Shown: positions 3,844 through 62,768 of the stretch, one piece after another
Layout of the letters: the number at the start of each line of letters is the position of its first letter
Position numbering within the stretch: position 1 is the stretch's first letter
DNA from: a virus
Taxonomy: Duplodnaviria; Caudoviricetes
Strand: one strand, 5' to 3'
Virus record (IMG/VR): IMGVR_UViG_3300026549_000895
Span: 96,001-160,000 of that record
DNA length: 64,000 nucleotides
The notes under the pieces: model-generated
The model's database searches: none
Told to the model about the DNA's origin: nothing
What the model saw: only the letters and a program-made list of their open reading frames with translations
Made by a program: the position numbers and the translations under genes

Positions 3844-4245
3844 TTAGCTAAAATCCATTTTCTGAACAATCAACAAAATATCGGCATACACACTGTGAGG
3901 TTCTGGATGAATGAATTTGTAAAATATTGACACATCCAAAGTTTTAGTATCGTTGATATTATTCACAACGGGTTCGATAAACATTTCATTGTGGCAAATT
4001 GTCATACTTTTGAAATTCTCAATATATGCTGATACAAAGAGTTTCAGATCCGTGAATGTACATTTACTGTCTTCTCGATAAATCTTATCGAAATCGATAT
4101 CGATATTTTGAGTAATAAATCTCTCATATTTTTCAATTCCGAATATTGAGAAATCTTCATCATAGATTTCTATGAAAGGATGTTTTATCTTCTTTGGGAG
4201 AGCTTTTCCTTCATAGATTATTTTGTAATCTTTTAAATTTTTCAT
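3844..4245 (-). CDS. Hypothetical protein
   Basis: 133 aa ORF with AGGAGG RBS. Confidence 0.75.
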   Translation of the reverse strand: MKNLKDYKIIYEGKALPKKIKHPFIEIYDEDFSIFGIEKYERFITQNIDIDFDKIYREDSKCTFTDLKLFVSAYIENFKSMTICHNEMFIEPVVNNINDTKTLDVSIFYKFIHPEPHSVYADILLIVQKMDFS

Positions 4246-4432
4246 GAAAGCCTCCTGACGATTTGTTTTTCCACTTTCTCGAAGTGTTTACATAAAGAAT
4301 TTGACAGATGTACTTTGGAGCACATCTGTCGATATTGATGTTTGATGGACGTCTTACCGAAAGATCCTATAGTCAACATTTTCCAATTCGTTCTTTTCTT
4401 ATCAACAACGAATTTCATCAAATATTGACGAA

Positions 4433-4577
4433 CTGACGATTTGTTCTTACTCAAGGAATCTATTGATTCCAGACAGTAAGCTATCACCCGGTGTCGAATC
4501 CGGGCTAATTACAGATTAAATATTAATCGTCTTTTTCCTTTTCTTAATATTTTTCAACATAATATACTTAATCCATT
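4433..4577 (-). ncRNA. TnpB omegaRNA (reRNA) scaffold; guide predicted at 4432 to ~4413
   Basis: Overlaps the tnpB 3' end. Hairpins CCCGG-ATTCGACA-CCGGG, CTTACT/AGTAAG and GGAATC/GATTCC, plus GACGATT/AATCGTC pairing. A conserved second copy lies at 62483-62626. Confidence 0.8.
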
Positions 4578-5738
4578 GATGTAATTAAATGCATATTGTT
4601 TAAGATTGATAGCAGCATTGATATCTCTATCAATTGTTAAACCACATTCATTACATTTATAAATCCGATCTTTTAATTTCAAATCGGATTTGATATTTCC
4701 GCATTTGGAACATCTTTTAGATGATGGAAACCATTTGTTTGCCAATATCAATTTATGATGTGGAATTCGTTCTTGTTTGTATAATAGCATTTCACGAAAC
4801 ATACCAAATCCATTATCCATTGTGGATTTTCCAAGATGTAAACATTGTGACATACCCTTCATGTTGATATCCTCAACACAAATTATTCTAAACTTCTTGG
4901 TTATCGAAGTTGATAATTTGTGTAAGAAATCTCTTCTTTGATTGGATATTTTCTCATGAAGAACTCTTATTCTTTGTAATGTTTTATCTCTATTAACACT
5001 TCCTTTCTGCTGTCTTGAGAATTTCTTTTGTAGTATTCGTAATTTTTGTTGGTTACTTCTATAATACTTTGGATAGTTGGCTTTATTGCTATTACTATCA
5101 ACATACAGCGAAGATGATGAATAATCAATTCCAAGAATATTAATATTCTTATCTTTATTCTTTTGAATATTATCAATACCAATTGAATATTGGAAACATA
5201 TTGAACAATAATATTTGTTTGTAATGGATTTGGATATTGTAATATGTCTTATTTTCCAATTGTCCGGAATATTCTTTTCTCTTGGATTGTATTTAACCCA
5301 TCCAAGACATGGAATCTTTATTTGATGATTATCATTGTCAATATGACAATCTTTCCATGCGTTATAATTTGAATATGAATTCTTACAATACTTCTTAGAT
5401 TTGAATCTTGGAAAACTTTTTGGTCTTCCATCCTTCCTCATTTTAATATTACTATTCTTGATATTTTCAAAATATCTTGAAAATGATTCGCGTAGAAATT
5501 GTTTTGTATTAGATACAGCATGTCTATCAAAGCGGTATTCTTTATTATCTTTTGATAACCATGAATTTTGTAATACAATATCGCCATAATTAGGAATTCT
5601 TAGTTGACCTTCATCAAATGATTTTATGGATAATTCCAACATTTGATTCCATACAAACCTACAAACATTGAATGTGTTATTGATAATGATTAATTGATTA
5701 TCATCTGGATAGATACGAATCTTTCTGGATGTTATCAA
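4554..5738 (-). CDS. tnpB: TnpB RNA-guided endonuclease, catalytic residues intact
   Basis: N-terminal KIRIYP...CRFVWN; RuvC-I GID, RuvC-II VEDIN, zinc finger CSKCG/CNECG, RuvC-III DRDINAAINL. Confidence 0.95.
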   Translation of the reverse strand: MITSRKIRIYPDDNQLIIINNTFNVCRFVWNQMLELSIKSFDEGQLRIPNYGDIVLQNSWLSKDNKEYRFDRHAVSNTKQFLRESFSRYFENIKNSNIKMRKDGRPKSFPRFKSKKYCKNSYSNYNAWKDCHIDNDNHQIKIPCLGWVKYNPREKNIPDNWKIRHITISKSITNKYYCSICFQYSIGIDNIQKNKDKNINILGIDYSSSSLYVDSNSNKANYPKYYRSNQQKLRILQKKFSRQQKGSVNRDKTLQRIRVLHEKISNQRRDFLHKLSTSITKKFRIICVEDINMKGMSQCLHLGKSTMDNGFGMFREMLLYKQERIPHHKLILANKWFPSSKRCSKCGNIKSDLKLKDRIYKCNECGLTIDRDINAAINLKQYAFNYINGLSILC

Positions 5739-5909
5739 ATCATCAATTGTCTCCTTTCTTTTTCTGTTTTCTCATACAAACAATATACATTTGTTTGTAT
5801 TGGAATCGGGGAATATTTGAATATTTTAATCGAATGGCTCTTTCCAACAATACTCGAGCGAATCTGGTTGAATTCTTGATTAAGCCTTTCTTTTTCTTTA
5901 TTCTGGTAT

Positions 5910-6374
5910 TCATTCTGGATGATACATTCCCTTCTCTCCTTTATTATGCATCCAAAGATTCAGTATACCAACGGCTGAGACATTAGATGGTACCCCATAA
6001 TCGATCGTGGCATTAGTTAGTGTGACAAGATTGTATCTTTTACATATCTCACGAGTTTCATCTTTTATCATGTTTGATATACATTCGTGATGTTGGGATT
6101 CTCCAACCTCAACATCGCATATGTAGTCTAAGTTAAAATCAAACATGATTCCGGTTACATTACATATTTCCTGAAGAGCTTTTAAAATATCATATGTTAA
6201 TATAATATCAACCTTTTTTCCTTCTGGGATGGTAGTGTAAATAAGTTGAATCATTTCGCACAAAGTTTTGATGTGCTCGTCAACATTATTGACGTTTGCA
6301 ATATATTTAGCGGCACTATAAACAGTGCCCTCCCTATACATTAATACTTTACTCATTATATACCAGACCTCCAT
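5910..6374 (-). CDS. Hypothetical protein
   Basis: 154 aa ORF in operon. Confidence 0.7.
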   Translation of the reverse strand: MEVWYIMSKVLMYREGTVYSAAKYIANVNNVDEHIKTLCEMIQLIYTTIPEGKKVDIILTYDILKALQEICNVTGIMFDFNLDYICDVEVGESQHHECISNMIKDETREICKRYNLVTLTNATIDYGVPSNVSAVGILNLWMHNKGEKGMYHPE

Positions 6375-58758: not shown

Positions 58759-60141
58759 TTATTCAGTAATTAGACCAGCAGAGATAGCAACCCATTCCTT
58801 ATTATCGAAATCGATTGTATTGTCAATGTAATTATACATTGAAACAAGTTCAAACTCTGCAAATATATCCTTGGTGTTTTCTTCGAGATTTAGAATATCA
58901 AGCTCATCACCATCAAAGTCTGCATTTAGTCCAGTAAGAACTTCAAGCGGAATTGATATGGTCGAGTCGTGCATTTTGTATTTACGAATCTTAAAACGAC
59001 CAACCGATTTGATATTGTTAACCGGTTCACGAAGCATCATAGCATATCTACCAGAATGCATAAGTTCATCTACTATCTCAACAACACGAGGATCATACTT
59101 ATGCTGATCTACAGTGAGATATGATTGCTCAAGAGGTTTGTGAAATCTCTTTGCAAATATTGATGTAATTCTGTATATCAGAACATTAACAATTGATGTG
59201 TAAGGAAGATCAATTTCATCAGCTCTAAGTGTGATGTCAGGAATAACAACACCTCTGATTGAGAAGTTGAAAGCACCGCCAACAATTTCAGATCTGATGA
59301 AACCTGTTTTCTTTGATAAAGAATTCTGCTGCAAGAACTCAGCACCTTCAACCCAGTTGGATTCAATCTCATTCAATCCAGAAATAATCTCTTCTTCCAG
59401 TATCATGGAATCGAGTTTATTAGATATCGAAAGCATCTTTGTGAGATACTTATTGATTATTGGATAGAACATTGTTTCCGAAGTCTTTGTAACTGGGCGG
59501 AAAGCTGTTGGATAAACTGGGATCTTGGAAGTGAATATAGCTTCTTTTTCACATCTAAGCATTATATATGCATCAGAATCTTTGTCTGAAATACATTCAT
59601 CAATAATGTCATACCAGTTGTCGTATAAAGCATCAAGTCCAATTCCCTGCAGATGATGTTTAGCTTTTGGAATTTTCTTGATTATTACAGAAAGATCGGA
59701 AGGTGTAGGTCTACCTTGTCTTCTCTTCCTCTTTTCGGAAAGTCCATCATCTTTATCAGAGTACTGCATCTCTGATAAATCATCTTTGTAGTCTCCCATG
59801 ATGAACCTGAGTAAGTTCGCACCAAATATATGACGAACAGAGTTGAAGTATCTTGGTGTGATGACGTGATGATCACCTAAATCAATCCATCCTGTATATT
59901 GGAAATTCAAAGAGTGAAGTGCTATTTCGGTATTGCATAATGGACAAGTGTGTCCTACTAATTCTTGTCCTATGAAAGCACCGCATTCACAACGATATTC
60001 ATTGTCATTGAACTTTTGATTGTTGATAAGATCATCCAAAGATACTGGTGAGAATTCATCTTCTGATTTAATAACAAAGCCATTGTGTTCTGCTATATCA
60101 GTAAGATATTCATTGTATAAATTAGCCTTTACGAGTTTCAT
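58759..60141 (-). CDS. Phage non-virion RNA polymerase beta' subunit, N-terminal half
   Basis: Zinc site CECG...CPLC; KTGFIRSEIVG..FSIRGVV; REP; catalytic NADFDGD. Confidence 0.93.
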   Translation of the reverse strand: MKLVKANLYNEYLTDIAEHNGFVIKSEDEFSPVSLDDLINNQKFNDNEYRCECGAFIGQELVGHTCPLCNTEIALHSLNFQYTGWIDLGDHHVITPRYFNSVRHIFGANLLRFIMGDYKDDLSEMQYSDKDDGLSEKRKRRQGRPTPSDLSVIIKKIPKAKHHLQGIGLDALYDNWYDIIDECISDKDSDAYIMLRCEKEAIFTSKIPVYPTAFRPVTKTSETMFYPIINKYLTKMLSISNKLDSMILEEEIISGLNEIESNWVEGAEFLQQNSLSKKTGFIRSEIVGGAFNFSIRGVVIPDITLRADEIDLPYTSIVNVLIYRITSIFAKRFHKPLEQSYLTVDQHKYDPRVVEIVDELMHSGRYAMMLREPVNNIKSVGRFKIRKYKMHDSTISIPLEVLTGLNADFDGDELDILNLEENTKDIFAEFELVSMYNYIDNTIDFDNKEWVAISAGLITE

Positions 60142-61835: not shown

Positions 61836-62474
61836 TTAGTATTGAATGAAACCTGCGGTGATACATGAGATGTATCCTAAAAACACATTATCCTTTTTCT
61901 GTATTTTTCCTTCGGTTCCATCTTGGAACATTTGTGACAAATATAAGAAATCATCACAAACTGTTAGTACAATTGGTTCTTCGATAGTTGCACATTTATT
62001 AATGATATTCAAATCTGATGTGACAATTGTTGAGTTTACATGTTCTTTGATTATGGGATCTATGTCTCCATAGACATATTCTACTTTGAATGGAAATGAA
62101 CCCTTAATATATTTTTCTATATGAGAAGAATACTGTCGTGAGTATATTGCAAGATATGGAATACTTTGAATTTTTGCTGCATCGAATATCTTATAGATGA
62201 ATTTATTCGTAGGCTTCAAAGCGTATGCTGATTCATAAAATACTTCTTCTTGAGATATGTAATCAGCATCTTCCTTGGGGATACCTTGCTTTTGTAAATA
62301 CTCGGAGAAATTATATTCTTTTCGATTTACATAATCAGATATCAACTGCTGGTCAGAAACATCTATTATTTTATTTTTGCGATATTGGTCGGCTACATTG
62401 TAGCCGACCATCGCAACTATTTCTTCATATGAACAGATGATACCCTCTTTACCGATGAATGATAAATCGAGCAT
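61836..62474 (-). CDS. Hypothetical protein (possible degenerate HAD fold); start reassigned to MLDLSF
   Basis: The first 21 codons of the track ORF lie in the omegaRNA copy and its flank; ATG at 62474. Confidence 0.7.
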   Translation of the reverse strand: MLDLSFIGKEGIICSYEEIVAMVGYNVADQYRKNKIIDVSDQQLISDYVNRKEYNFSEYLQKQGIPKEDADYISQEEVFYESAYALKPTNKFIYKIFDAAKIQSIPYLAIYSRQYSSHIEKYIKGSFPFKVEYVYGDIDPIIKEHVNSTIVTSDLNIINKCATIEEPIVLTVCDDFLYLSQMFQDGTEGKIQKKDNVFLGYISCITAGFIQY

Positions 62475-62482
62475 GTGAAATC

Positions 62483-62626
62483 CTGACGATTTGTTCTTAC
62501 CCAAGAAATCTAACGATTTCAGACAGTAAGCTATCACCCGGTGTCGAATCCGGGCTAATTATGAATTAAATATTAATCGTTTTTCCTTTCATTATATTAT
62601 TTTCAACATAATATATTTAATCCATT
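62483..62626 (-). ncRNA. Orphan omegaRNA scaffold; guide predicted at 62482 to ~62463
   Basis: Same hairpins as copy 1, with a compensatory change from GGAATC/GATTCC to GAAATC/GATTTC. Confidence 0.75.
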
Positions 62627-62749
62627 AAAACATTTTAAAATGTTTGATACTGATTTCTCAAATCACAAATTAACTATTCATGGTATCTTGGTTATCGATT
62701 ACCAATTAATTTGTGATTATTATATGAGAAATTTGATGTTTGTGTTTGA
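62483..62749 (-). mobile_element. Non-autonomous 267 bp derivative of the TnpB element, carrying the omegaRNA scaffold
   Basis: 62483-62626 is homologous to 4433-4577 (42 nt identical core). Left end TCAAACACAAACAT resembles TCCAATACAAACAA. Sits between an AAGGAGG (62752-62758) and the ATG at 62474. Confidence 0.8.
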
Positions 62750-62768
62750 ATCCTCCTTCAATGATGAA

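Follow-up and report, generated by a model that had tools for sequence, protein, structure and literature searches.

The 270-bp element at positions 62483-62752 of the window, called D below, is best explained, at a probability that we put at roughly 0.55, as a non-autonomous derivative of a tnpB element that has lost the gene and that would be served in trans as a guide-only satellite in jumbo phages of ~240 kb from the rumen and gut. The window is the whole stretch of DNA that was analysed, 64,000 nucleotides long, and corresponds to bases 96001-160000 of a 239,830-bp virus record that is 89% complete. The locus is made up of the following features.

62483..62752, minus strand: orphan element D, a tnpB-less derivative whose length, 270 bp, is exactly the difference between occupied and empty alleles.
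62483..62614, minus strand: omegaRNA scaffold of D as delimited by covariance model R1, with ACGAUU/AAUCGU as long-range stem, GCCCGG/CCGGGU as a hairpin, and a stem CUUAC/GUAAG around the hairpin GAAAUC/GAUUUC; covariation is present.
62463..62482, minus strand: predicted guide-encoding flank of D, (G)ATTTCACATGCTCGATTTA, in a register certain to +/-1 nt; the homology of all copies stops at GTCAG(G), and the flank is identical to that of the empty alleles in contigs L122 and L123.
62752..62758, minus strand: AAGGAGG, the Shine-Dalgarno sequence of the interrupted gene, TAM-like, directly 5' of D and found before the spacer and ATG in every empty allele.
62615..62751, minus strand: 5' part of D, with a diverged tnpB-start stub, a 13-bp inverted repeat (AATCACAAATTAA/TTAATTTGTGATT), and a palindrome (AAACATTTT/AAAATGTTT).
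58759..60141, minus strand: a 460-aa protein matching PF00623 (RNA polymerase Rpb1 domain 2, 9.5e-8, above the cut-off) and phrog_2987 (2e-43).

Within an operon, element D occupies an intergenic gap of 24 nt, with its sense strand the same as that of the genes. It has AAGGAGG (62752-62758) on one side and on the other the ATG (62474) that starts a gene for a 212-aa protein, which is where the original prediction had put it. The predicted RNA polymerase neighbourhood also holds, as the 460-aa protein two genes downstream is, judged by its domain matches, a beta'-like piece of a split multisubunit RNA polymerase; no family was found for the 212-aa gene or the 546-aa gene that lead from D to it. 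A pairwise alignment recovers the proposed second copy of the tnpB 3' end and omegaRNA, with ~145 nt common to 62483-62626 and 4433-4577 (minus strand) and an identical run that covers TAGCCCGGATTCGACACCGGGTGATAGCTTACTGTCTG. Covariance model R1 scores D at 143.7 bits (E 5e-26) and the tnpB-bearing copy, C, at 151.1 bits, while the rest of the window stays at E>=0.33. The homology of the two ends sharply, as had been noticed, at ...AAATCGTCAG (terminal 13-mer AACAAATCGTCAG), and the flanks beyond are unrelated, GATTTCACATGC... in D vs TTCGTCAATATT... in C. The compensatory change reported for one stem is likewise seen, GAAATC/GATTTC in D vs GGAATC/GATTCC in C, and the view is upheld that D, though devoid of tnpB, has kept its scaffold intact and has a guide of its own that derives from the flank.

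Several details of the earlier account needed revision. The copy had been given as 267 bp without an ORF; no credible ORF lies inside D, and the true size, taken from the empty sites, is 270 bp. Its boundary is ambiguous within AGGATT, which is repeated at 62749-62754 and 62479-62484. The occupied junction reads GTCAGGATTTCAC, and in the right end, GTCAGGA, the AGGA is a candidate ribosome-binding site 7-8 nt before the ATG. The predicted guide takes in the spacer and the beginning of the 212-aa gene, from its ATG (62472-62474) through the first codons. The palindrome in the 5' part covaries with its counterpart in a sister orphan, A (AAGCATTTT/AAAATGCTT), and a promoter-like TTGAGA-18-TAAAAT in the same part is not above chance, with 6 matches vs 4.0 expected.

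A single active TnpB serving two guides had been proposed. In the whole record tnpB is in fact present twice, at 85% identity, alongside four omegaRNA scaffolds that are intact and a fifth copy that has decayed to a relic; the scan by covariance model that had been suggested as a check recovers the sister orphan A. The scaffolds are distributed as follows, and nhmmer together with the covariance model detected no further scaffold copy in the record.

Genome 27337: scaffold A, orphan.
Genome 91231: scaffold B, with tnpB B at 91353-92522, just upstream of the window.
Genome 100433, window 4433: scaffold C, tnpB-bearing.
Genome 158483, window 62483: scaffold D, orphan.

The two orphans are 90% identical over ~265 nt and have an internal deletion in common. 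Both start with a diverged tnpB-start stub, which in A still reads ...AAAATTGTTGATTTGATAACATCC as in copy B, and the stub is followed by ~70 nt that could not be assigned to any part of the parent and that have two hairpins, and then by the complete scaffold. From this shared arrangement of deletion, 5' stub, and scaffold, D is to be classed as a MITE/PATE-like internal-deletion derivative of a tnpB element rather than as a separate type of cassette. A and D also agree with such elements in having no ORF, in keeping the ends of the parent, in occurring as dispersed copies, and in being polymorphic for insertion. The left end of D is ~10 nt shorter than that of A, and its start point is a GATT common to source and target.

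The tnpB-bearing copy C and the relic next to it, E, comprise these features.

4554..5738, minus strand: tnpB of copy C, 394 aa, TTG start; Pfam OrfB_IS605, Cas12f1-like_TNB, and HTH_OrfB_IS605.
4433..4565, minus strand: omegaRNA scaffold of C, 151.1 bits with the covariance model.
4413..4432, minus strand: predicted guide of C, TTCGTCAATATTTGATGAAA, the flank directly after GTCAG.
4255..4415, minus strand: relic E, the third copy without tnpB, decayed and adjoining C on the downstream side, with the terminal 13-mer AACAAATCGTCAG.

The TnpB of copy C is probably an active nuclease, as its alignment with ISDra2 TnpB (E 2e-42) spans the whole protein and nine relatives show no change at D205, E289, or D372. 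Alignment with copies A and B indicates that the whole element probably runs from 4433 to 5750, with its left junction AAAGGAG|ACAATTG at 5751/5750. A left end after CCGAT at 5807 was considered and rejected, as this position falls inside a 142-bp repeat whose second copy lies 2.2 kb from the other tnpB; the cleavage target CCGAT|TTCG... that had been derived for C from this end is thus probably wrong, and homology with A and B gives AAAGGAG|ACAATTG in its place. For the same reason the 11/14 match between the left ends of C and D, which does exist in the sequence, probably does not compare two left ends, because its partner on the side of C lies inside the repeat. The repeat itself is 95.8% identical between window 5761-5902 and genome 94805-94946, just upstream of the window; one copy abuts tnpB C, the other is located upstream of tnpB B, and both orphans are without it. 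It holds a hairpin, CAAACAAATGTATATTGTTTG, and most of a basic ORF of 56 aa. When copy C is removed at AAAGGAG|...CAG|TTCG, this upstream 56-aa ORF and a 58-aa ORF downstream fuse in frame (window 5743-5913 and 4242-4416, minus strand), which could be a split small gene or chance.

Relic E escapes detection by the covariance model. Its terminal 13-mer stands 9 nt before the ATG of the gene at 3844-4245, it has hairpins at equivalent positions (GACAGATGT/ACATCTGTC and CACTT/AAGTG), and it has a stub, AAATTCGTTGTTGATAAG, that resembles a tnpB start. Since E lies directly downstream of C, a tandem insertion is implied in which the guide of C targets the junction with the older copy E. An empty allele for copy C was not found, and four other contigs with an identical downstream protein all have both C and relic E. 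In L139, a relative of 66% identity, the DNA past the right end (2869-2920, AATTGTTGAATCATGAGAAAATTTAATATT...) is like a left end plus a degenerate tnpB start (MRKFNINEDN vs SRKIRIYPDDN), and this likeness suggests tandem copies there too.

The scaffold structure was derived from an alignment of ten copies, A-D and six more, taken from related contigs that encode a TnpB of 61-85% identity. Three helices are supported, namely GCCCGG/CCGGGU, CUUAC/GUAAG, and the terminal hairpin that the latter encloses, each with compensatory changes. Pairing is kept in 90.8% of the helix cells and nine pairs are changed on both sides, a result that was reached in 0/500 shuffles and that collapses in slid controls. 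Most copies have a long-range closing stem, GACGAUU/AAUCGUC, which L129 and L139 keep in a shifted register and of which D has lost the first G (AACGATT vs GACGATT). The terminal hairpin (window 62502-62517 and equivalents) is hypervariable in sequence and always paired, with the variants GAAATC/GATTTC, GGAATC/GATTCC, TACTC/GAGTA, TACATC/GATGTA, and AGAAC/GTTCT. Between A and D there are seven differences in this hairpin, and they are compensated (TACTC/GAGTA vs GAAATC/GATTTC), while a core of 60 nt is identical. Differences among otherwise near-identical scaffolds concentrate in this hairpin, which might act as a module for specificity or be a hotspot of recombination. No Rfam family was found for the scaffold; one match to an sRNA was dismissed, as it was below threshold and on the opposite strand. 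The sequence as a whole has the parts of an OMEGA system: a TnpB encoded by the same genome, though not by orphan D itself, a scaffold of the predicted RNA that ends at the element boundary with a guide from the flank, and a TAM-like motif.

Many relatives of TnpB, 76-93% identical, are found on metagenomic contigs of ~240-250 kb (ENA and Logan, rumen sets included). Tubulin, a divergent DNA polymerase, and RNA polymerase in split pieces are encoded there as well, and on this gene content they form with the record a jumbo-phage clade of ~240-kb genomes from the rumen and gut. The D site was scored on 34 of the many related contigs on which the 212-aa gene was found, own record included. It is occupied in the own record only (1/34) and uninterrupted in the 33 others, so the empty-site alleles that the original prediction expected in related phages exist. 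The empty gap measures 24 nt in close relatives and 18 nt in five contigs of an 85%-identical lineage (L019-L023). Most of the close empty alleles read TTGAAGGAGGATTCAATATG or one of the variants ATTCGAC, ATTCAAC, and ATTCGAT. L122 and L123, which belong to one lineage (L122 is 240,536 bp), read TTGAAGGAGGATTTCACATGCTCG, the exact flank of D with AAGGAGG in place. The exact match in these two empty alleles is AAGGAGGATTTCACATGCTCG; the empty allele of L122 is AAGGAGGATTTCACATGCTCGATTTATC, and own record and L122 are identical from -34 to +44 around the D junction. For orphan A, two contigs have the insertion and seven the empty site, all seven empty alleles reading AAAAAGGAGGAAATCTAAATG and matching the flank of A. 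The empty sites can be written as AAGGAGG+ATTTCACATG for D and AAGGAGG+AAATCTAAATG for A. As the two orphans stand at unrelated sites that both have empty alleles, the tnpB-less form itself must have moved at least once.

The empty alleles also set the register of the target. AGGATT occurs once in the empty allele and at both ends of the occupied one, so the statement that both copies follow GAT was made in the wrong register, and the target deduced from it, AGGAT|GATTTCAC..., is present in no empty allele. The real target of D is AAGGAG|GATTTCACATGC... or, shifted by one nt, AAGGAGG|ATTTCAC..., that is, AAGGAG(G)|(G)ATTTCACATGCTCG. In 20 of the 22 close empty alleles the D guide is mismatched at two to three of the first seven target positions, and most relatives may therefore escape cutting guided by D. 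In close relatives (L016-L031 and L113-L123) the 7 nt of spacer that separate AAGGAGG from the ATG occur as five haplotypes, ATTCAAT, ATTCGAC, ATTCAAC, ATTCGAT, and ATTTCAC, the last being the only one that matches the D guide; within the gene, about one site in 14 is variable over the first 300 nt. We considered this spacer polymorphism as a sign of escape from cutting and found it unsupported, as the spacer is non-coding and only 7 nt long and the diversity map of the left flank is spoilt by indels. Behind an RRAGG motif no other match was found in the whole genome to any of the guides. A blastn search of a phage collection with the D locus returned no match, and scans of IMG/VR for a close relative returned none for the 212-aa protein, none for a 26-nt core of the scaffold, and one match of 28% identity for TnpB. 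A pattern scan of JGI metagenomes added a single copy, L128.

A minor but real possibility is that D is an inert relic or hitchhiker, left when a tnpB element landed at the site or was recombined into it and then lost its gene. The remnant would have no effect and be kept through near neutrality, with its AGGA still on offer to the ATG. The great rarity of the insertion among relatives would fit such a history, as would the mismatch of the guide to most empty alleles, and relic E demonstrates that copies of this kind do decay in place. What speaks against it is that a single deletion derivative is found at two unrelated sites, both with natural empty alleles, that nearly all of the tnpB coding sequence has been deleted while the scaffold is exactly spared, and that the hairpin changes between A and D are compensated.

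The insertions of this family follow a common pattern. All nine independent copies in which both junctions are readable have an RRAG(G) motif at the 5' side, in most cases the Shine-Dalgarno AAGGAGG, and terminate with GTCAG(G). The tnpB start follows at a variable distance of 8-21 nt past the motif, and from this spacing tnpB appears to use a ribosome-binding site captured by the insertion. The right end of A, B, D, E, and L129 is 9-10 nt before the start codon of the displaced gene, to which it offers AGGA. Each copy (A-D, L008, L009, L129, L133, and L139) has a junction repeat of 2-9 nt, made up of AG or AGG and 0-6 more nt, and the repeats sum to 53 vs ~27 in mismatched pairs (permutation p<5e-5). 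In both orphans, whose empty sites are known, exactly 6 bp are common to the two junctions. Canonical insertion of IS200/IS605 and IS607 elements is not known to leave a junction repeat of this kind. Neither Y1 TnpA (PF01797) nor serine TnpA (PF00239) was found in the 89%-complete record. The copies thus depart from IS200/IS605 elements in the absence of a Y1 TnpA and, at the right end, of the terminal hairpin of the bacterial relatives, and in the presence of a junction repeat, and from IS607 elements in the absence of a serine TnpA and of a constant GG core, since AGG stands at both ends in 7/9 copies and C and L008 have only AG. Spread between genomes would occur by recombination, either plain or as homing stimulated by TnpB, and rare new insertions would arise through microhomology-dependent joining at ribosome-binding sites.

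That D is instead a classical IS200/IS605 PATE, moved by peel-and-paste through a Y1 TnpA supplied by the host, with TnpB only restoring excised copies, is improbable. Such PATEs are known, and the nearest bacterial relatives of the phage TnpB, at most 42% identical and from rumen Clostridia, often have a Y1 TnpA ORF directly upstream as well as a homologous omegaRNA core. Their right ends, however, have a GC-rich terminal hairpin and the end TATGTCAC, both of which are missing in the phage copies. The left end of the latter is merely the 8-21 variable nt before the tnpB start, and the lack of any TnpA in the record and the significant junction repeats likewise argue against this route. It is more doubtful still that D is a regulatory insert that tunes the downstream gene, by replacing the strong AAGGAGG with the weak AGGA and a structured leader or by placing a TnpB RNP on the start region, for although five copies share the distance of 9-10 nt to a start codon and RNA-guided repressor relatives of TnpB exist according to a report on TldR (PMC10705468), the RuvC triad is intact, the targeted genes are unrelated, the insertion is not fixed but polymorphic and rare, and the guide is D's own flank, which in the occupied allele is without a TAM-like motif.

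The closest published parallel to a guide-only satellite is found in Geobacillus stearothermophilus, whose PATE-like IS200/IS605 elements (PMC10055086) resemble D in having no coding capacity, in keeping the ends and the omegaRNA scaffold, in taking a guide from the flank, and in coexisting with a full-length tnpB. Meers et al. 2023 argue that omegaRNA-encoding PATEs must be served by TnpB in trans (PMC10055086). Unlike those elements, D is viral, has no TnpA and no matching end hairpins, and has a short junction repeat; insertion in the phages is usually after a Shine-Dalgarno sequence, and exact natural empty alleles are present in sister genomes. The IS607 IStrons of Clostridium botulinum have a TGGG TAM vs a UCGG scaffold end (Zedaveinyte et al., PMC10690162), and the phage family is similar in that the TAM-like motif resembles the scaffold end and differs upstream, RRAG(G) vs UCAG(G), which would spare the occupied allele. 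In both, the boundary is ambiguous because the same G(G) stands at both ends. Unlike the IStrons, the phage family is without a serine recombinase and without an intron, C and L008 share AG only, and the closest bacterial TnpB relatives adjoin Y1 rather than serine TnpA. The ISDra2 TnpB-omegaRNA complex (PDB 8exa, 8bf8, and 8h1j) shares with the phage system the full-length protein alignment, the D-E-D triad, and the zinc ribbon, as well as an omegaRNA that overlaps the 3' end of the gene and a guide that starts at the element boundary. It differs in its TAM, TTGAT rather than RRAG(G), and the phage-borne system has neither a TnpA nor, at the right end, a terminal hairpin of the TnpA type.

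Intronless homing by the free-standing homing endonuclease genes of T-even phages (Seg/Mob) is reviewed in PMC13565253, and the same 2026 review anticipates the phage setting under the term "non-restorative homing". Like Seg/Mob genes, D lies between conserved phage genes, is present or absent in close relatives, and would presumably spread by cutting of the empty allele in a co-infecting phage and recombinational repair. Unlike in Seg/Mob, recognition by D would be through RNA, so that a satellite without a gene can carry its own specificity, which no protein homing endonuclease is known to permit.

As a guide-only satellite, D would have inserted recently, directly after the Shine-Dalgarno sequence of the 212-aa gene, with ~110 nt of left end and the ~145-nt scaffold kept. 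Given its sense orientation in the 24-nt gap of the operon, D is expected to share a transcript with the neighbouring genes. Its scaffold would be bound and processed in trans by one of the two TnpB proteins of the phage, the flank-derived guide, (G)ATTTCACATGCTCG..., would direct cleavage of uninterrupted alleles with AAGGAG(G) and the target in co-infecting relatives, and recombinational repair would then copy the satellite into the cut allele. The occupied allele would be protected, as its own junction reads GTCAG(G) and not RRAG(G). The prerequisites for homing are present, with an exact empty target in L122 and L123 and matching flanks. The rarity of D, one record among 34 contigs, argues against an efficient drive, and so does the mismatch of its guide to 20 of the 22 close empty alleles. 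The missing first G of the long-range stem also speaks against the satellite reading. Conservation of structure in D could merely reflect its youth, and were TnpB to bind the operon mRNA at the guide, translation of the gene downstream could suffer.

A wider and distinctly more tentative proposal is that the jumbo-phage clade harbours a TnpA-independent family of RNA-guided homing elements. In such a family the Shine-Dalgarno sequence would act both as target-adjacent motif and as ribosome-binding site of tnpB, the displaced gene would receive a substitute AGGA, guide-only satellites would parasitise TnpB in trans, and new sites would be reached without a transposase, by microhomology at AGG and a few further nt. 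TnpB biology has so far come from bacterial transposons with a TnpA partner, and orphan omegaRNA elements are already known in bacteria; here TnpB is phage-borne and transposase-less, ribosome-binding sites are targeted, and the substrates are natural ones. The system comprises a pair of nucleases, two guide cassettes that lack a gene, and one copy in decay; sister genomes provide both occupied and exact empty alleles, and the target sequences for cleavage assays are now corrected. It makes testable whether an omegaRNA alone can be a selfish element that borrows its nuclease, whether TnpB may serve as a weapon of homing or exclusion between phages, and whether a ribosome-binding site can act as a TAM.
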